DNA from: Escherichia phage FEC14
Length of the DNA stretch: 64,000 nt
Reading direction: 5' to 3' (one strand)
Sequence record: MG383452
The notes below the pieces were generated by a model. It was not told the DNA's origin and searched no databases. It was given only the letters and a program-made list of their open reading frames with translations. The position numbers and the translations under genes are program-made. This document shows, one piece after another, positions 2,775 through 31,882 of the stretch (positions are counted from its first letter, which is position 1; the number at the start of each line of letters is the position of its first letter).

Positions 2775-4358
2775 ATGAATGCTATAGAAAAACGTATTCT
2801 CAAGCTGTTGAATGAGAACAGAAGTCAAAGTTCAATAGCCAGTGAATTGGGCGTACCGCGCTCAATGATACAACGCGTGTCGGATAAAGAACTGGGAGTG
2901 GATCCGGCTTCGATTAAGTCTCTGACCACTGAACAGATTCAAGAAATACAAACCAAGAGCAGCAAAGGTGAAAGCAATTCTTCTCTGGCATCAGTTTATG
3001 GCGTCAGTGCCAAAACAATTGCCCGCGCCCTGATGGTTCGTATCATCAAAGAATCTAATAACGTGGTCGTGATTTCGCCAATTAAAGAATTGACTGAAGA
3101 AGGGAAAATCCCCGACACCTATGAAGTTCTGGAAGGTTCGGTGTCTGTCGATTCTGAAGGCGAAGAATGGTATGTTGGCCGTTTCCTGGAAAACCAAACA
3201 GTGTTTATCTGTATGCGTTACGATAGCTCTGCTGCTATTCAGGCCAAACTTTTCAGAAGCGAAGAACTGAAACCGTTAGAAACTCGGTCAAGCCGCTTCA
3301 ATGAAGAAAATATTTCTCCGTTGGTCGAATTGGCGACAGCACTGGTTGATGGCGTTACCAAAGTCAATGACGGCGTGGTAATCAGTGTACAACATGACGG
3401 CGAAACATACCCGATGCGCGGTTCCCTTGATGCCCGTCGGCGTGTGGGATACTTTGACGCAATTCTGGGGCGTACACTTCGACTGGCGTTGTCGTCTGTT
3501 GTTTTCTCGGTTAAGACAACGGCTGTTGAGGAAGAGTCTGGCGACAAACAAACTCAAAACTCATTTAAAGAAAAAGATCTGTCAGTGTTCTTGAATGAGC
3601 ACCAGATCATGATTTTACCGGAAAGCATCGTTATCGTTATGGATGGCAAACCGGAAACGATAACCACAAGCCATCAGGCGTATGACCGTATTGTTGAAGC
3701 GATTAAAAATCGTGACGTCAAAACAGCGTACACTCTGATGAAACCGCGTGAAGCCATCAAACAATTCACCACAGGCATGGTTGACCTTTCAGACAATCGT
3801 GTTCGCTGGGGTGGCTATGATATCACCGGAACTTCCGTTGCCAAACGCATTTTGGCTTTGGCATTAAAAGGCGATTATCCAAACTTAGAACGCTTGGGTC
3901 GTTTTCTGGACAAAATGTTCCAAAACCCGAGCGCCGCGCTGGTTCAGTCCGGTCGAATCTATGAATTCATGGCATATTCGGATATCGAAATTCATGAAGA
4001 CGGTGATATCATCCTGTATAAATCCGTTCGCGGTAACTACATGGACAAGCGCACAGGAAAAGTTAGTAATGCTCCTGGCACCATTGTTCGAATGGCTCGC
4101 TCATTCGTGAACGATAACAACAAAGACCTGTGCTCCTATGGTCTTCACGTTTGTTCTCTGGCGTATCTGAAACAATGTTTCGGTAGCCTGGGCCAGCGGG
4201 TTGTGCGTTGTAAGCTGAACCCGAAAGACATCGTGTCTATCACTGATGATTACGGTTCTAGTAAAATCCGCTGCTGTGAATATCTCGTGTTGGATGACTA
4301 TACTACGGAATACAACCGCCAACATAAATCTATTGATGTTGACGGTCTATACAAGTAA
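2775..4358 (+). CDS. rIIB-like partner protein with N-terminal helix-turn-helix-like repeats
   Basis: 527-aa ORF immediately after the rIIA-like gene. N-terminus has two HTH-like segments ('SIASELGVPRSMIQRV', 'LASVYGVSAKTIARAL'). Assignment is by position only. Confidence 0.35.
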   Translation: MNAIEKRILKLLNENRSQSSIASELGVPRSMIQRVSDKELGVDPASIKSLTTEQIQEIQTKSSKGESNSSLASVYGVSAKTIARALMVRIIKESNNVVVISPIKELTEEGKIPDTYEVLEGSVSVDSEGEEWYVGRFLENQTVFICMRYDSSAAIQAKLFRSEELKPLETRSSRFNEENISPLVELATALVDGVTKVNDGVVISVQHDGETYPMRGSLDARRRVGYFDAILGRTLRLALSSVVFSVKTTAVEEESGDKQTQNSFKEKDLSVFLNEHQIMILPESIVIVMDGKPETITTSHQAYDRIVEAIKNRDVKTAYTLMKPREAIKQFTTGMVDLSDNRVRWGGYDITGTSVAKRILALALKGDYPNLERLGRFLDKMFQNPSAALVQSGRIYEFMAYSDIEIHEDGDIILYKSVRGNYMDKRTGKVSNAPGTIVRMARSFVNDNNKDLCSYGLHVCSLAYLKQCFGSLGQRVVRCKLNPKDIVSITDDYGSSKIRCCEYLVLDDYTTEYNRQHKSIDVDGLYK

Positions 4359-5131: not shown

Positions 5132-5524
5132 ATGGCTATCGTTGACGAAAGCAATTTGATGGAGTACGCTCTAAGACATTATATCACCCCTGGTGTCTCA
5201 AGAGATGATTTGATGGTAGACATTCAGCGAATTTCGCTAATTAATCAATCATTGAAAAGATTTGTGCCAGGGAAAAGTCCTCGCGTACTTATCAATCAAT
5301 TGATTATCCTTTTCAATACCTTTGAAACCGAAGCCGTGTGTCGAATGTTGGTGTTGAAAACGGATAAGAACCAACATCCTCGTCTTAAAGCAGCGCTGTT
5401 GACGTTAGGTGTTTGGCGAGATGATTTATGTTCCGGTTCATACGAACCAGATAACGAGCTGATGATGGCTCTGAACAACGATTTGGATGAGTGGAGGAAA
5501 CCATGCCAACAATCACAGTATTAG
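5132..5524 (+). CDS. hypothetical protein
   Basis: 130-aa ORF, same-strand gene packing. Confidence 0.5.
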   Translation: MAIVDESNLMEYALRHYITPGVSRDDLMVDIQRISLINQSLKRFVPGKSPRVLINQLIILFNTFETEAVCRMLVLKTDKNQHPRLKAALLTLGVWRDDLCSGSYEPDNELMMALNNDLDEWRKPCQQSQY

Positions 5525-6312
5525 TCGCGCCGGAAGTTGTCCGCAACAAACCGGAAACCGAACGCAATCATGTCGTGACGGGTGTTGCAAAGGGTTGGCA
5601 AAAGACCAGCCTCAACCAAGATCCTGATGAGATCCTGACCGAATGTAAAGGTCTTGACGCTCTGCTCACCAAGAGCAATTTACAAGCGGACGGTGTCACC
5701 AAAGTGGATCCCACCAAGCCTATCGGCTTTCAAGTATCTTATGAAATCCACGATCCGAATGCCATTTTAACCACCGGACTTGTGATTACTCCAGCTACAG
5801 CCAGCGGAGAGATCGGACAATTTGTTGAATTGCTAGCGACGGTATCCCCTGCCAATGCCACATATCAAGGCGTTAATTGGTATTCTGGTGATATTACGAA
5901 AGCTGTACATGTCGGTGGTGGTAAATTCAAATTGCTGGCTTCAGGAACTGTAACGGTTTATGGTGTCACGGTTGAAGGGAATCACACAGATTCTACGGTT
6001 ATTACAGTTGCAGGCGCTCTGTCGCTGTCGACTGATTTACCTGCCACCAAAGACGTAACTTCTGGACAAGACGGAACCTTTAGTGTTGTTGCTGCGGGCG
6101 GTACAACTCCATACACTTATGTGTGGCATTTCTCTGATACTCCTGGGGGTGCGGGGTCAGTTATCGATGCTGGCACTAATGCCACCGCCGCCACTGCTAA
6201 CCTGGTTATCACAGCAGTTGAAGCCGCAAATGAAGGCGAATATTGGTGTGTGGTTTCTGATGCAGATGGCCATTCTGTCACGTCTACTCGTTGTGAAATG
6301 GCTGTGGTGTAA
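5503..6312 (+). CDS. Ig-like domain protein (BIG2-like plus Ig-like domain), possible virion decoration protein
   Basis: GGAGG SD before MPTITVL. Beta-rich segments 'GVNWYSGDITKA...TVTVYGVTVEG' and 'GEYWCVVSDADGHSVTSTRCEMAVV' are typical of Ig-like folds. Confidence 0.55.
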   Translation: MPTITVLVAPEVVRNKPETERNHVVTGVAKGWQKTSLNQDPDEILTECKGLDALLTKSNLQADGVTKVDPTKPIGFQVSYEIHDPNAILTTGLVITPATASGEIGQFVELLATVSPANATYQGVNWYSGDITKAVHVGGGKFKLLASGTVTVYGVTVEGNHTDSTVITVAGALSLSTDLPATKDVTSGQDGTFSVVAAGGTTPYTYVWHFSDTPGGAGSVIDAGTNATAATANLVITAVEAANEGEYWCVVSDADGHSVTSTRCEMAVV

Positions 6313-7134: not shown

Positions 7135-7181
7135 ATATCTGTGTGGGGAGAGAACTCCCCATTTTGAATCGGAGGTGATTT

Positions 7182-26456: not shown

Positions 26457-26533
26457 AATAACACCTGGTAATGATTTCTTGGAATTATACTGCTACTGTC
26501 TTTATTGAATGGGGTTCCGAAGAACCCCAATTT

Positions 26534-27961
26534 TCATGCCGCTTCCAACAACACCAAAATATTTTCGATATATGCTTTCTGGATAGCATAGACTTCAGCC
26601 AGTGTATTAGCGACTTTCTTGTCTGTGCGTACTTCAACGAGACGTGGAAGGAATAGAGACTTCATGGCGTCATCGGTTTTATCCTGTACGCCATTAGAGA
26701 GCACGGCGGCAATCTTACCAATGAAGTCCTCTTGGTTTTCCCACATTCGTAGTCTCAACTCATCCGAGATCCCCGATACGCCAACAACTAAGAGGCTATC
26801 AGAGGTCTTGCAGAGGAGAGATCCAAATGTCTTGGCGTGCTTCCCTTTCTTATCGGCCTCGTTGAAGCCAACGATTTCAAGGTCACATTCTACTTCCATT
26901 TTTAGCTTTAACCCTTCAGATGATGTTCCATCTTCCCAAGGCATATCTGCGGCCTTACAAATCGTGCCTTCTTCCCGACGAGACAAAGCGTCTTTGAAGT
27001 GTTCGACAGCTTCTTCAAATGAATGAACAACACGGGTTTCTTGAACCTGAACCAGTCCGTCATCCCCTTCGAACAACTGTTGTATGATATCAAAACGGCG
27101 CTCATATGGGGTGTCCACACGCTGAGCATTGAACCAATTATCATACGGCACAACGTCCCATACCCGATAGATCACCTTGTAACGATCTTCCAGGGGTTCA
27201 CCCGTTTGGATAACACTGTTGAGCTTACCATTGCCGATAGCCCGAGGCAACACTGTATTCGTTTTCAGATCAATGACGAGCAGTTCACCATGGAAGACGC
27301 TTTCACCAATCCCCGCATCGTAGATCAGGTCTTTGAAAACCAATGATAGGTTATCAACGGAACCACCCGCAATAAGAGAACCGGAACGAGAACGAATCTC
27401 TGGGTCTCTTCCATAACGACAGATGATGTTGGCAAACATGCCATCTGACTTCAGCTGGCTGAAGACGCCGCGCTTGAAGTCCATCTTCTTCAGCAAGTCA
27501 ATCGTCATGTTATCATAACGGTGATATGGAAGGATATTAATCAGACGCCCTGTACCACCTGCTGCGTTGAATGCTGCGTTTATACCTTTTTCGGCAATTC
27601 CCGCTTTGATGTCTCTGTCGAGTATAATTTGTATCAGGGTATGGTAATCCGGATGGATGTTGGTCGCGGCCTTCGCAAGTTCTTGATCTGCCTTCATCCC
27701 ACCGATCTTGCGTTCGGCCATCATATCGAGAACATCATAAACCTGATCCCAGCTACCGACAACGCCGCGCGAGAGCATGCGAGGGAATGCATTCAGATTG
27801 AATTGAGTGCGGTAATAAGAACGCATCGGGTCGTAGACGTATTGAAGGAAATCAACCAGTTCCGGATTGGTTCTGAACGCTTCGGTCAACACGGCTTTCT
27901 TAGCATTAGTGCCTTTGGTATCACGAAGATTTTGGATTATTTCTAAGAGAGGAAGCATCAT
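26534..27961 (-). CDS. ATP-dependent DNA ligase
   Basis: N-terminus 'MMLPLLEIIQNLRDTKGTNAKKAVL...YVYDP' parallels T4 gp30; adenylation motif 'FSQLKSDG' (KxDG). Confidence 0.85.
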   Translation of the reverse strand: MMLPLLEIIQNLRDTKGTNAKKAVLTEAFRTNPELVDFLQYVYDPMRSYYRTQFNLNAFPRMLSRGVVGSWDQVYDVLDMMAERKIGGMKADQELAKAATNIHPDYHTLIQIILDRDIKAGIAEKGINAAFNAAGGTGRLINILPYHRYDNMTIDLLKKMDFKRGVFSQLKSDGMFANIICRYGRDPEIRSRSGSLIAGGSVDNLSLVFKDLIYDAGIGESVFHGELLVIDLKTNTVLPRAIGNGKLNSVIQTGEPLEDRYKVIYRVWDVVPYDNWFNAQRVDTPYERRFDIIQQLFEGDDGLVQVQETRVVHSFEEAVEHFKDALSRREEGTICKAADMPWEDGTSSEGLKLKMEVECDLEIVGFNEADKKGKHAKTFGSLLCKTSDSLLVVGVSGISDELRLRMWENQEDFIGKIAAVLSNGVQDKTDDAMKSLFLPRLVEVRTDKKVANTLAEVYAIQKAYIENILVLLEAA

Positions 27962-28014
27962 GTGTCTCCAGGGTTATTCGTCTTGTTATTATAACCCCAG
28001 AGACTTCAATAGAT

Positions 28015-28197
28015 TTATTTGCTGCGTCTTTTTCTAGCCTTATCTACAATCTGAAGAACATCCACTCCATATTTGCGCATTCTTCTATTATTGATCCATT
28101 CGGCCCAAAACGGTTGAAAAAGAATAATCAAGATCCCGAAAAATAATATTGCAGACCAAATATAAAATGAAATATCTTTCATATGTCTTCCTTCCAA
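28015..28197 (-). CDS. small membrane protein
   Basis: 60 aa with one TM helix 'IWSAILFFGILIILF' and a basic C-terminus. Confidence 0.4.
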   Translation of the reverse strand: MEGRHMKDISFYIWSAILFFGILIILFQPFWAEWINNRRMRKYGVDVLQIVDKARKRRSK

Positions 28198-28757
28198 ACA
28201 AATCCATACTTGGAAAGATAATCTGGTTTCGTTCCATTACGAGTTCGAGCACGATACACGATAGATTCTACAGTTTCTGCCTTGTGAATAGGGACATTTC
28301 CGTTGTTCATATACTCTTTAAACAACCTGTGAAGATATATCAAAAATTGTTTATTGTGAGTGTCGTTGTAATTCCAAAACCATACAACCTGATATTCATC
28401 TTTACGTGCTATTTTCGCATAAAAACCATTTGATTTTGATTTTAATTCACACGATTCTATGAACGGCCAACCCAAACCTTTCATGAAATATTGAAAATAT
28501 TCTTCAGGAGTAGTGTCTGGGTCTTTGTGTTCTAAGTTGAAATCATCTATGCTCGGAACCAAACTTTTGGACACACGACTACTCAGAATAAGTTTTATGT
28601 CTTTAACATTTTTCGTGGTATTTTCTGGTTGTAAATCTGAGGAGACGGCCTCAACAACCCGTTTTCCCAAAGATTTTTTGATTCTCATAACGAGAACACA
28701 GACCCCAACCATACTAAGAACAGCAATCAAAATATCTGTTGAGTCAATAATGACCAT
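28179..28757 (-). CDS. membrane-anchored protein
   Basis: Internal ATG with 'GGGGGA' SD, placed after the intercistronic hairpin; N-terminal signal-anchor 'ILIAVLSMVGVCVLV'. The longer track ORF (to 28901) reads through the hairpin and overlaps the upstream gene. Confidence 0.45.
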   Translation of the reverse strand: MVIIDSTDILIAVLSMVGVCVLVMRIKKSLGKRVVEAVSSDLQPENTTKNVKDIKLILSSRVSKSLVPSIDDFNLEHKDPDTTPEEYFQYFMKGLGWPFIESCELKSKSNGFYAKIARKDEYQVVWFWNYNDTHNKQFLIYLHRLFKEYMNNGNVPIHKAETVESIVYRARTRNGTKPDYLSKYGFVWKEDI

Positions 28758-28770
28758 AAATCCCCCAAAT

Positions 28771-28790
28771 GAAGGGGCATATGCCCCTTC
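28771..28790 (-). terminator. perfect 20-bp palindrome (intercistronic hairpin / possible terminator)
   Basis: 'gaaggggcatatgccccttc', 5 nt past the stop of the PspA-like gene and directly upstream of the next SD. Confidence 0.45.
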
Positions 28791-28794
28791 TATA

Positions 28795-29403
28795 TTATTT
28801 TGATAAACTTGCCAGATAATTGTCCGCTTCTGTTGATGAAGGGCTATTGGTAGAATAATTGGAATCAGCGATTTCAGCTTCCCGCAGGATAGCATCAACA
28901 TCTACATTAATCATTCCAGCCGCGTAATCGATGTCTTCCGGTAAAGTTAACCCAAGATCATTTGATTCTTTCTGAATTCGGACCAATTCGAGATTAGACT
29001 TAACAGCGTCCAGTTTGTCACCTAATTCAACAATTGCCGAATTCAATTTCACGCTGCCAGATTCGATCTCTTTGACTTTATCCAGCAGAGCTTCACCAAT
29101 ACGACGACGGTGGAGTATGATCAAGGCTTCAGCGCGGGTAGGAGTTACTCCGCGAGCGATCGCATCTTTCAAAATGGTTTCTCGCTTGATGGCTTCAGCC
29201 AGATTTTCATCAGCGGTCTTCTTCATCTTAACGCCATGGTGGACATTGGTTACACGGGCTTCTTCTAAACGCCGGATTTCATCAGATAGTTTCCGTGCAG
29301 CCAGATTCAAACGCTTCTCAGTATCTGTGAGTTTATCCAAACCTGCAGTTAAATTGGCCTCGACAGTGCTGAACAGGCGGTTTAAAAAGGTTTTCAGTGA
29401 CAT
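28795..29403 (-). CDS. PspA/IM30 (phage-shock protein A)-like coiled-coil protein (putative)
   Basis: 'gaggaa' SD before ATG 29403. N-terminal amphipathic helix 'MSLKTFLNRLFSTVEANLTAGLDKL' and a long coiled-coil resembling PspA. Confidence 0.45.
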   Translation of the reverse strand: MSLKTFLNRLFSTVEANLTAGLDKLTDTEKRLNLAARKLSDEIRRLEEARVTNVHHGVKMKKTADENLAEAIKRETILKDAIARGVTPTRAEALIILHRRRIGEALLDKVKEIESGSVKLNSAIVELGDKLDAVKSNLELVRIQKESNDLGLTLPEDIDYAAGMINVDVDAILREAEIADSNYSTNSPSSTEADNYLASLSK

Positions 29404-29418
29404 TAATATATTCCTCAA

Positions 29419-29760
29419 TTATTTCTTAGGTGGTGTGACAGAGGTGAAGGATTCCTTCCAACTCTTGAATTTTTCAATCAGGGATTCTTTCCCCATCTCG
29501 CCGTTGGAAACATCATGGATATAAGCAAATGCGTCATACCCATATCCTGGTAAAGCAGAACAGATTCGAAGGTGAACCAAAGATTCTCCCACAGAAACCA
29601 AATAATGATCGCGACGATCATTCAGAGCATAATGATTGTCGTGAAACTTGTCGATGATGGTGCAGTTTTTAGGCTCAACATCAATCGCTAACCCATTGGC
29701 CTCAGAGCCGCCGCGCCCAAGCGTACAACCTGGGAATAATGTTTCTACGAGTGTGGGCAT
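29419..29760 (-). CDS. hypothetical protein
   Basis: 113-aa ORF. Confidence 0.45.
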   Translation of the reverse strand: MPTLVETLFPGCTLGRGGSEANGLAIDVEPKNCTIIDKFHDNHYALNDRRDHYLVSVGESLVHLRICSALPGYGYDAFAYIHDVSNGEMGKESLIEKFKSWKESFTSVTPPKK

Positions 29761-29814
29761 TGTTTATTCCTTCTGTTTAATTCCCATGTATTATATGGGT
29801 AAACGTTTATTGAA

Positions 29815-30162
29815 TTATTTGTTGTGATAGCCAAGAGCTTTGCGGACTTTTTCACGGTCATATGTATCGACCTGAATTGCTTCACGATTAATCCGACGCC
29901 TGTGATGTCGGGTGAGCGCTTTATACACGGCCTTGGCCTCATGGTATGGCAGACAATCGAAACAAAAACCGATATCGACTCTATACCCTGCGCTGCTATT
30001 GACTGTATATGCACATACCCTTACGCCGTTATAGATGACAGCATCGATACCGACAAAGCGTTCACCATTCCATTCAACGTCATCAGCGTCGACAGCATCA
30101 ATAAGACAACGGATTTCGACGCTTAGGGGTTTCCCCAACAACCAGTTAAAATATTTGCGCAT
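29815..30162 (-). CDS. hypothetical protein
   Basis: 115-aa ORF. Confidence 0.45.
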   Translation of the reverse strand: MRKYFNWLLGKPLSVEIRCLIDAVDADDVEWNGERFVGIDAVIYNGVRVCAYTVNSSAGYRVDIGFCFDCLPYHEAKAVYKALTRHHRRRINREAIQVDTYDREKVRKALGYHNK

Positions 30163-30163
30163 G

Positions 30164-30376
30164 TCATTTACTCATCAGTGAAAGAAGATTGACTTTATCT
30201 GAACGTGCGTTTGGTGAGTAATGCACGTCCTGAGAGTGCCTCTTACAGCACGGACAATCCTTGGTGGCAATTACACAGGGAGCCTTATCCACGGCATATC
30301 CGGCTTCTTCGGCTTCCTTCACGGTGTTAAATGGCAAGTATGCACTTGTGCCTTGCCCTCCGCATGAACATTCCAT
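30164..30376 (-). CDS. small cysteine-rich protein
   Basis: 'MECSCGG...CPCCKRH' in 70 aa. Confidence 0.4.
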   Translation of the reverse strand: MECSCGGQGTSAYLPFNTVKEAEEAGYAVDKAPCVIATKDCPCCKRHSQDVHYSPNARSDKVNLLSLMSK

Positions 30377-30576
30377 TAGAAATCCTCCTTGGTAATGAAG
30401 AGCAAATCAGATTTCAGATTTTGGCGCTTGACACGGCGGACATGTCGATGCTCCTTTTTAATACCGTCTGAACGTTTTGATTTAGAGCGGCGATTTTTGT
30501 ATGTGTCCGCTGGGTACTTGTCATGGCCTGGACAACAAGATCCAGGGTAGTAAACATCCAAGATTTCCCGTTTCAT
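30376..30576 (-). CDS. small basic protein
   Basis: 66-aa Lys/Arg-rich ORF. Confidence 0.35.
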   Translation of the reverse strand: MKREILDVYYPGSCCPGHDKYPADTYKNRRSKSKRSDGIKKEHRHVRRVKRQNLKSDLLFITKEDF

Positions 30577-30688
30577 TAACGTTTCCTCTTAAATGGGATG
30601 ATCAGGGCTATGATTAACAGCATAGCTGTGATCACTCCGCATGCGATAAGACCGAATGCAAATGCTTTCAAAACAAATTGTAAAAGAA

Positions 30689-31882
30689 TCATAATTTCCT
30701 CAGTTTTGCCCTTGTAATCTGAGTTTGTTTAATACCTTTGAATTCGGTCAATTCTTTGACACGACCTCGAATGATCATATCGCCTTCTAAAAACTCGGTT
30801 TCCATATAGGAAGTCTTCCATGTAATGGTATTGCCTTCCTTGGTTTTGAAAGTATACAGATACGTGTCACCATAATCAGATGAATACAGGAAAATCCTTG
30901 CTTCAAATTTGACCTGTGCTTCTAACATTTCACCAACTTCACCAACCCAATTTGATACAGTGCGCGTTTGGCGGGGGGTGTGGATATAATCATAATACTT
31001 TGCTGCTCCCCAACGAACTGTTGTTGAGTCTTTAACAAGGTGATAACCAGGTTCGCACATACGTTTCAGCCGGACGTTGAAATCGTTATTTTCAGACAAC
31101 GATGCGATGAAAAGCATCATATGATACATCTCTGATTGAGCATCTTCACGGGCTTTAACAGCCTTGTTATAGAATATATCAATGTCAGAACCTTTCTCCG
31201 GACGAGTCCCGCTAGAGATATGACCAAGAACTCGACCAAAATCATCACTTTTAATGCTCATGCCCGACAGCAAAACCTGAAAGCATTTACACAAATATCC
31301 TTCTGTGTCAACATAATCTGGTTCATTAACCCGATAAATCCCTTCTGGGTCATCTTCATCGGGGGTAAACATTTCGTGAATAGACATGTAATAAGACATA
31401 ACCGCATCAAGGGATTTCTGATGCGGGACATAATGATGCATACAGCTGCTACCCACGAGCATCTGTGCGCCAGATTGTTCGTTACGAACGACATATGTGT
31501 TATGACGACGCACAGATTTGTTGCAATGCTCGCACCAAGATACGTTTTCAGCTTCAAATCTTTGAACGAAATTTGGGTGGATGTCATCTGACAGTTTATT
31601 CAGAATGACTTTTGGATACTGGTGGTTGAATTGTCCAATAATGCTCCACCCGCCGTAGGAAACGGGGCGGTCGATGCCTTCACCAGTGAGTGTACAATCC
31701 TGCCACCACCGATAGAATTTTTCACCAGTGATAGAATCGCGGTGTTGTGTTTTGTATGGTTCACTGAACTCAACAAGAGGGAACTCGAGTTTCAGGCGGT
31801 TTGCCGTTCTTTCAAGTTTGGCAAGACGTTCCTTGACACGACCAATGTTATCAATTGGGATGCTGAAGGTCTTGGCTTTCAT
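30689..31882 (-). CDS. hypothetical protein
   Basis: 397-aa ORF with 'GAGAGG' SD; central 'SWCEHCNKS...H' Cys/His segment. Confidence 0.6.
   Translation of the reverse strand: MKAKTFSIPIDNIGRVKERLAKLERTANRLKLEFPLVEFSEPYKTQHRDSITGEKFYRWWQDCTLTGEGIDRPVSYGGWSIIGQFNHQYPKVILNKLSDDIHPNFVQRFEAENVSWCEHCNKSVRRHNTYVVRNEQSGAQMLVGSSCMHHYVPHQKSLDAVMSYYMSIHEMFTPDEDDPEGIYRVNEPDYVDTEGYLCKCFQVLLSGMSIKSDDFGRVLGHISSGTRPEKGSDIDIFYNKAVKAREDAQSEMYHMMLFIASLSENNDFNVRLKRMCEPGYHLVKDSTTVRWGAAKYYDYIHTPRQTRTVSNWVGEVGEMLEAQVKFEARIFLYSSDYGDTYLYTFKTKEGNTITWKTSYMETEFLEGDMIIRGRVKELTEFKGIKQTQITRAKLRKL

Follow-up and report, generated by a model that had tools for sequence, protein, structure and literature searches.

Escherichia phage FEC14 (sequence record MG383452) encodes, within a stretch of 64,000 nucleotides (nt) that was analysed as a whole and is called the window here, a protein of 202 amino acids (aa) that is placed by homology, as a diverged member, in the PspA/IM30 (Vipp1) branch within the ESCRT-III superfamily. 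By sequence comparison, its gene (28795..29403, minus strand) is also the orthologue of gene e.6 of phage T4, and the protein belongs to phrog_1203. A first, sequence-only reading of this locus had proposed a PspA-like protein with an amphipathic N-terminal helix and a long coiled coil, followed by a perfect palindrome and the genes of two membrane proteins, termed d1 and d2 below.

PspA/IM30 homology of the 202-aa protein

The 202-aa protein matches the Pfam profile PF04012 (PspA_IM30) with an E-value of 3.7e-8, residues 7-146 being aligned to profile positions 3-143. This profile search had been proposed in the sequence-only reading, and its score of 33.7 bits compares with a gathering cutoff of 33.9. 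A PF04012 match is also precomputed for most of the close homologues, one of which bears the NCBI name 'PspA/IM30 family protein'. In a scan of 35 diverse family members, PF04012 was matched at E <= 0.01 by seven (best 8.9e-10), and the remaining 18 listed families had one matching member apiece. A profile search run exhaustively against 1.84 billion representatives returned only 39 relatives; as nearly all of them have about 200 aa and are matched over their full length, the family is compact.

Comparison at the level of profiles extends the similarity to proteins of known structure. In the PDB, the family profile (A2, built from 35 diverse members) matched Vipp1 with an E-value of 1.2e-5 and residues 1-144 of E. 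coli PspA with 3.5e-4. Its matches to Vipp1/PspA chains keep one register between residue 1 and about residue 146, and the tips of the hairpins coincide. A PDB search with the 202-aa protein as a single sequence gave no match. Alignment of the family profile with Vipp1 1-147 by hhalign resulted in a probability of 94% and an E-value of 1.4e-7, whereas reversed Vipp1 reached 0.1% and 20 shuffled Vipp1 sequences reached at most 1.6%. Since the reversed and shuffled controls were negative, the match is sequence-specific and goes beyond coiled-coil composition.

The AlphaFold2 (AF2) model of the protein has a predicted local distance difference test (pLDDT) value of 75.7 and contains helices 3-83 and 90-149, which form the long antiparallel α1/α2-3 hairpin, with values of 83-97 over most of this hairpin. 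The top matches of the model in a Foldseek search of the PDB were all Vipp1. Among the viral structures of BFVD, the highest-ranking matches were members of the same family, after which came a phage 'PspA/IM30 family protein' and a giant-virus Snf7. The sequence-only reading had let its PspA-like identification stand or fall with a PspA/IM30 match and a coiled coil, and both of these were found, the former by profile and hhalign comparison and the latter in the helical-hairpin model.

The AF2 model of the C-terminal tail comprises only two short helices (169-176 and 190-201) of low confidence, and the tail motifs LG-x-LPEDI, VDVD, and D/E-x-YL-x-SL are kept within the phage family only. The 202-aa protein is predicted to retain α0 and the long α1/α2-3 hairpin and to carry a family-specific tail of about 50 aa in place of the C-terminal helices of PspA. 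In comparison to PspA/Vipp1 (PF04012; PDB 4whe, 6zvr, 7o3w, 8qfv), it is shorter (202 aa versus 258-277 aa for the Vipp1 chains in the PDB), the identity in structural and profile alignments is 13-22%, and the C-terminal 50 residues are specific for the phage family. Other phages have annotated PspA/IM30 proteins of the canonical type, an example with the same fold class being that of Acinetobacter phage vB_AbaM_ME3 (229 aa; Foldseek probability 1.00, template modelling score ~0.6). This protein has 14% identity in the structural alignment and is directly recognizable as PspA/IM30; the e.6 family, by contrast, forms a phage lineage of its own that has diverged much further.

Relation to T4 e.6 and earlier annotation

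The assignment to the e.6 family is based on a match of the 202-aa protein to phrog_1203 with an E-value of 2.6e-67 over residues 4-201, i.e., the full length; T4 e.6 itself matches phrog_1203 with 8e-88. A direct BLASTP comparison with T4 e.6 (NP_049742, 197 aa) yielded 24% identity over 194 residues (E 1e-13), and the orthologue in Shigella phage Ag3 is annotated as 'e.6'. T4 e.6, a 'conserved hypothetical protein' encoded at 5313-5906 (minus strand) of the T4 locus stretch, resembles the window protein in its full length, in its phrog_1203 membership, and in its C-terminal D/E-x-Y-L-x-S-L end, while its neighbours e.5 and e.7 are unrelated to d1 and d2. In a time-resolved omics study of T4, the RNA of e.6 has been classed as early, and the protein has been detected and classed as middle (PMC9697503, supplementary files 4 and 6). 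Compared with T4, phage RB18 seems to have its 'e.6' and 'e.7' notes interchanged.

Searches with tblastn found the family in 392 phage records, which comprise Ackermannviridae and many Straboviridae, the latter from Klebsiella, Aeromonas, Enterobacter, Serratia, Escherichia, and other hosts. The family phrog_1203 is conserved in large virulent myoviruses of both families. The link to PspA emerges only via members from Ackermannviridae and Pseudotevenvirus or via the family profile.

The identification as PspA is already known as a published prediction for a near-identical phage. Gp_125 of Kuttervirus SeF3a, a phrog_1203 protein, was recognized in 2022 as a PspA homologue by comparison with pdb70, and the annotation 'phage_shock_protein_A' was proposed for phrog_1203 together with a hypothetical role against abortive infection (Int J Mol Sci, PMC9409062). 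That study presented the gene as particular to SeF3a and to 4 of 15 Kutterviruses. The SeF3a gene, deposited as 'shock protein A', has 97.5% DNA identity over window positions 28700-29500 and is essentially the same gene as the one described here. The text of PMC9409062 does not link the family to 'e.6' or 'T4' and does not mention a deletion cassette, membrane-protein neighbours, or a hairpin. Searches of the literature for experimental work on family members and for publications joining T4 e.6 with PspA found nothing; a paper on CBASS that mentions PspA homologues was set aside because it concerns host PspA and not a phage protein. The present analysis adds the explicit connection with T4 e.6, the deletion cassette, the probable cytoplasmic orientation of the membrane proteins and their common motif, and the recognition of the palindrome as an ordinary conserved RNA stem-loop.

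Organization of the locus

Over window positions 27000-30500, the sequence shares 99.3% identity with Salmonella phage aagejoakim (Kuttervirus, Ackermannviridae) and 98.3% with SFP10, which identifies the stretch as phage DNA and, by this similarity, as a segment of a Kuttervirus genome. All features of the finding lie on the minus strand and are listed here in the order of transcription, with the cassette at the end:

29419..29760, minus: gene of a 113-aa upstream neighbour (phrog_5022); conserved, outside the cassette, 80% identical in Ag3 and kept in phage PhaxI, which is without the cassette
28795..29403, minus: gene of the 202-aa PspA/IM30-like protein, orthologue of T4 e.6 (phrog_1203), counted from ATG
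28771..28790, minus: intercistronic RNA stem-loop with 8-bp GC-rich stem and AUAU loop, a perfect 20-nt palindrome in DNA; from sequence and predicted fold
28761..28766, minus: Shine-Dalgarno sequence GGGGGA of d1, 3 nt before the d1 ATG and with complementarity to the hairpin's 3' arm
28179..28757, minus: d1 (phrog_11433), 192 aa, with an N-terminal transmembrane anchor (hydrophobic residues 8-26); its C-terminal domain probably lies in the cytoplasm
28015..28182, minus: d2, 55 aa, with a single transmembrane segment (hydrophobic residues 4-22) and a basic C-terminal tail ending IVDKARKRRSK (phrog_37830)
26534..27961, minus: gene of an ATP-dependent DNA ligase, next after d2 in the order of transcription
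28036..29422, no strand assigned: 1,387-bp cassette of e.6-like gene, hairpin, d1, and d2, present or absent among Kutterviruses

The order of transcription is thus 113-aa gene, 202-aa gene, a 37-nt spacer, d1, d2, and DNA ligase. The longest open reading frame of the PspA-like gene begins with TTG at 29418. The spacer reads TAA (28797-28795)-TATA-GAAGGGGCATATGCCCCTTC (28790-28771)-ATTT-GGGGGA-TTT-ATG (28757), and the start of d2 overlaps the end of d1 by ATGA. The coordinates, the order on one strand, the 20-nt palindrome, and the hydrophobic N-terminal stretches of both downstream proteins given by the sequence-only reading all agree with the sequence. The PspA-like gene is located in the early/middle replication cluster, among genes for a primase-helicase, the ligase, and a helicase loader.

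The cassette of e.6-like gene, hairpin, d1, and d2

Comparison with Escherichia phage PhaxI by BLASTN showed homology that is continuous to window position 28035 and begins again at 29423. PhaxI lacks the intervening 1,387 bp, which comprise the e.6-like gene and the hairpin together with d1 and d2. In PhaxI, the 113-aa upstream protein is fused in frame to RKRRSK*, the final six codons of d2, resulting in gp010 (about position 3000 of the PhaxI locus). As gp010 retains the end of d2, the short form of the PhaxI type is a deletion derivative. Short sequences resembling TTTCT(T)AG are found at both deletion breakpoints in the window. At megablast level, the full gene was found in 29 phage records and the flank only in 63 Kutterviruses, a split which agrees with the 4 of 15 reported in PMC9409062. 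A subclade of Kutterviruses has lost the three genes jointly in one clean deletion.

A search for related loci with alignment A1 returned six loci. The order of e.6-like gene, hairpin, d1, zero to three small transmembrane genes, and ligase is kept in Ag3 and in five IMG/VR genomes, and the e.6-like protein is down to 48% identical across these lineages of Ackermannviridae. The genes were described as a module in the sequence-only reading, and this holds in so far as they occur together across several genera of Ackermannviridae and are lost together; it does not extend to T4-like phages, in which the neighbours of e.6 are unrelated, nor to a match of the membrane proteins with PspB or PspC.

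Membrane proteins d1 and d2

All 16 examined sequences of d1, d2, and their paralogues have a short neutral or acidic N-terminal tail, one transmembrane segment, and a mostly basic flank after this segment. Because of this positive-inside pattern of charges, the N-terminus would be outside and the C-terminus inside, with the soluble parts in the cytoplasm. The C-terminal parts of d1 and d2 thus probably face the cytoplasm, i.e., the side on which the PspA-like protein would be found. A prediction of topology had been suggested for these proteins in the sequence-only reading, which had called d1 signal-anchored; the hydrophobic N-terminal anchor is confirmed by the sequence, while the implied periplasmic domain is at odds with the distribution of charges.

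Every copy of the small transmembrane protein that was examined ends in [IV][IV]xxARxR (IVDKARKRRSK, IVHNARKRRK, IISQARSRTRQ, and others), and d1 has the same motif, ESIVxRAR, near its C-terminus. Copies of the small transmembrane and d1 motif in related Ackermannviridae loci are located as follows:

L004: 3694-4192
L010: 4199-4381
L012: 4203-4728
L014: 4179-4334

Other Ackermannviridae have zero to three paralogous copies of the small transmembrane genes, situated after the e.6-like gene and before that of the DNA ligase. Judged from these sequences, the small proteins look like miniatures of d1 consisting of transmembrane segment and tail, and it may be speculated that the IVxxARxR motif has a docking role.

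In Kuttervirus, Agtrevirus, and other Ackermannviridae, the gene that directly follows the e.6-like one encodes an orthologue of d1. The d1 protein evolves far faster than the PspA-like protein, with 32% versus 80% identity between Kuttervirus and Ag3, and its AF2 model, which is based on an alignment of six close sequences, has a pLDDT of 37. In Serratia phage KNP4, the d1-like domain is present as two soluble copies. T4 e.5 was considered as a counterpart of d1 and was ruled out by comparison; neither four T4-like loci nor the rest of the window gave a relative when searched with the d1 profile. A search of NCBIfam gave no match for any protein of the locus.

The arrangement of the locus resembles that of PspA with PspB/PspC in enterobacteria and of LiaH with LiaI in Bacillus, in which genes for small single-transmembrane proteins with soluble parts in the cytoplasm likewise come after a gene of the PspA family on one strand. 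PspBC and LiaI are the membrane anchor partners of PspA and LiaH, respectively. However, d1 and d2 have no sequence similarity to PspB, PspC, or LiaI, and the putative phage pairing is confined to Ackermannviridae. In contrast to the bacterial psp operon, the phage locus is encoded by virulent phages and has no PspF, PspB, or PspC context; the search for these Psp-operon partners found none, the neighbourhood being a phage replication cluster.

The intercistronic stem-loop

The palindrome between the PspA-like gene and d1 is perfect over 20 nt, for which the chance expectation is about 0.06 per window (64000 x 4^-10). As RNA, it would form an 8-bp stem with a 4-nt AUAU loop and a free energy (ΔG) of -14.6 kcal/mol. 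Stem-loops with -12.6 to -16.0 kcal/mol are found at the same position in eight lineages of Ackermannviridae. The stem core GAGGGGC/GCCCCUC is largely conserved across these lineages, two of which have compensatory changes (GAGGGGU/ACCCCUC and GGGGGAC/GUCCCC), and the loops vary (AUAU, GAAA, AAA, AUA, AUAA, UUAU, UUCG). Since the stem is kept and the loops differ, it is the RNA stem that is under selection; the CATATG core noted by the sequence-only reading is, like the perfect symmetry of the DNA, incidental. A protein-binding DNA palindrome with this core was rejected for the same reason, as the orthologues keep the stem but neither the loop nor the palindromic symmetry.

Hairpins of this kind are frequent in the window, which contains 18 distinct GC-rich hairpins with perfect stems compared with a mean of 2.4 in shuffles. 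The 17 further ones are located at 7144, 8592, 15263, 17918, 26510, 31967, 34424, 36540, 42894, 47696, 49689, 51238, 52624, 55960, 57062, 60776, and 61650, those at 26510 and 31967 being near the ends of the gene run described here. Many of them have a GGGG/CCCC core flanked by AAA...TTT, e.g., AAAGCCCCCGAAGGGGCTTT. No Rfam family was matched anywhere in the window. The hairpins are probably terminators or RNA-stability elements that punctuate the genome.

A scan with the terminator consensus called the 8-bp hairpin only on the antisense (plus) strand; the sole call on the minus strand at this site was a weak alternative 5-bp pairing of CCCCT/GGGGG. The orthologous hairpins are mostly without a U-run, with the exception of KNP4, which has a canonical terminator at that position. 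If the 5' arm is removed, the 3' arm of the hairpin pairs with the Shine-Dalgarno sequence of d1 (ΔG -10.5 kcal/mol). Such a pairing upon occupation of the 5' arm is compatible with the suggestion of the sequence-only reading that the hairpin sets the ratio of expression of the flanking genes. The hairpin is likely to be a stabilizer of the 3' end, a partial attenuator, or a translational insulator.

Possible function and alternative explanations

A function of the PspA-like protein in the protection of the membrane, as proposed by the sequence-only reading, can be inferred from these comparisons. The protein would be made in early to mid infection and act in the cytoplasm at the inner membrane, where it may bind and oligomerize on stressed membrane, reducing the leakage of ions and preserving the proton-motive force during the latent period. 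A phage-encoded PspA-like protein would matter because the infected host may be unable to induce its σ54-dependent psp operon. In Ackermannviridae, d1 and d2 may recruit or anchor the PspA-like protein as PspB/C or LiaI do for PspA or LiaH. The palindrome would act as an RNA stem-loop between the cistrons, probably as a 3' stabilizer or weak attenuator that insulates or tunes the translation of d1. This reading as a whole, with protection of the membrane and the proton-motive force by a PspA-like protein, its anchors, and the RNA stem-loop, is held with moderate confidence; all the evidence is bioinformatic.

Several observations weigh against this reading. Regarding the PspA-like protein, the PF04012 score falls 0.2 bits below the gathering cutoff. 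The N-terminal region is predicted to be helical and aligns to α0 of Vipp1, but it has a pLDDT below 50 at residues 7-18, and its hydrophobic moment (muH) of 0.40-0.44 compared with 0.61 in Vipp1 makes it moderately amphipathic; the test value of 0.40 is reached by 239 of 2000 shuffles (12%). For the C-terminal ~50 residues, no similarity to α4-5 of PspA was detected, and the alignments to PspA/Vipp1 stop at about residue 147. T4 e.6 alone has no PspA_IM30 match in Pfam, which is probably why it is still listed as hypothetical.

Regarding the other parts of the locus, searches of Pfam and NCBIfam with d1 and d2 gave no match to PspB, PspC, or any other family. The genes flanking e.6 in T4-like phages are unrelated ones, and d1 and d2 are absent there. 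Accordingly, the gene linkage is a trait at the level of the viral family and not of every e.6 gene, and a partnership with d1 and d2 is not general for the e.6 family. The coding-strand tail of the hairpin, AUUUGGGGGAUUU, has no U-tract after the stem, and the hairpin is therefore not a canonical rho-independent terminator. Finally, many Kutterviruses have deleted the cassette, which is therefore dispensable; the phages can do without it under many conditions.

A more restricted variant of the membrane-protection reading, which is compatible with it, regards the PspA-like protein as a specialist of anti-defence that counters abortive-infection effectors depolarizing or perforating the inner membrane, such as Rex-like proteins and the transmembrane effectors of cyclic oligonucleotide-based antiphage signaling systems (CBASS) and similar systems. 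This role is the one hypothesized for SeF3a (PMC9409062), and it is in line with the early to middle expression of T4 e.6 and with a patchy presence among near-identical Kutterviruses, which is typical of accessory counter-defence genes. However, the family is broad, with 392 records from two phage families, and a general physiological role fits at least equally well. The narrower role is rather unlikely.

Improbable is a regulatory mimicry, in which the phage protein would bind PspF or another partner of PspA and thereby silence or hijack the psp response of the host instead of acting on the membrane. PspA of E. coli is both an effector and, via its N-terminal helical domains, a negative regulator of PspF, and it is exactly the N-terminal part (1-146) that is conserved in the phage protein while the PspA-like C-terminus is lost. 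On the other hand, the identity to PspA/Vipp1 is only about 20%, and the repression of one operon would be of little value to phages that probably shut off the transcription of the host.

The sequence-only reading had also considered a modulation of lysis timing, by which the PspA-like protein and the two membrane proteins would delay or tune the triggering of the holin in the manner of an antiholin. Both membrane proteins are small with a single transmembrane segment, and T4 e.6 is only a few genes away from the lysozyme gene e. However, six other genes lie between e.6 and e, T4 e.6 gives rise to an early RNA and a middle, not a late, protein, and the cassette is part of a replication cluster and not of a lysis cassette. 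This role is quite improbable and the least likely among the functional proposals of that reading. An entirely compositional likeness of a generic coiled-coil protein with a scaffold or structural role unrelated to membranes, as the label 'tail completion protein' might suggest, is very improbable and has largely been refuted, since reversing or shuffling Vipp1 abolishes the hhalign match, all matches to PspA/Vipp1 lie in one register from residue 1 with matching hairpin tips, and early to middle expression speaks against a role in the virion.

If the membrane-protection reading is true, large virulent phages carry their own ESCRT-III-type protein for membrane maintenance, which replaces a host stress response they may disable. 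This would bear on the energization of infected cells until lysis, on resistance to membrane-targeting abortive infection, and on the reach of ESCRT-III into bacterial viruses. It would also provide a function for T4 e.6, an expressed yet uncharacterised gene of a model phage, and explain a difference in accessory genes among therapeutic Kutterviruses. A bolder extension, which is put forward tentatively and regarded as rather unlikely, is that e.6/phrog_1203 constitutes a phage 'minimal ESCRT-III' polymer that seals the inner membrane of the host and is recruited by the anchors of Ackermannviridae via the IVxxARxR docking motif, i.e., a self-contained viral membrane repair distinct from the host Psp system. 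In that case, T4 e.6 would be a ready genetic model, and Kutterviruses with and without the cassette would serve as near-isogenic controls.

Neighbouring genes and public annotations

The gene run is headed by a gene for a cysteine-rich protein of 397 aa (30689-31882, minus strand). In the record of Ag3, this protein is noted as similar to KVP40.0369 of Vibrio phage KVP40, and it represents another gene common to Ackermannviridae and T4-like phages. The DNA ligase gene is preceded by a 53-nt spacer (27962-28014, minus strand; TTGAAG...GGGGTTATAATAA) with a TATAAT-like element that might be a promoter and that is kept in genomes without the cassette.

Public annotations of the small genes in this region are unreliable. 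The 113-aa gene (29419-29760, minus strand) carries the label 'DNA ligase' in several public records, the 55-aa transmembrane protein (28015-28182) is called '1-acyl-sn-glycerol-3-phosphate acyltransferase' in the records of STP55 and ISTP3, and a 38-aa open reading frame (30576-30692, minus strand) is labelled 'homing endonuclease' or 'HNH endonuclease'. Homologues of e.6 are labelled elsewhere as 'tail completion protein' or 'host specificity protein'.

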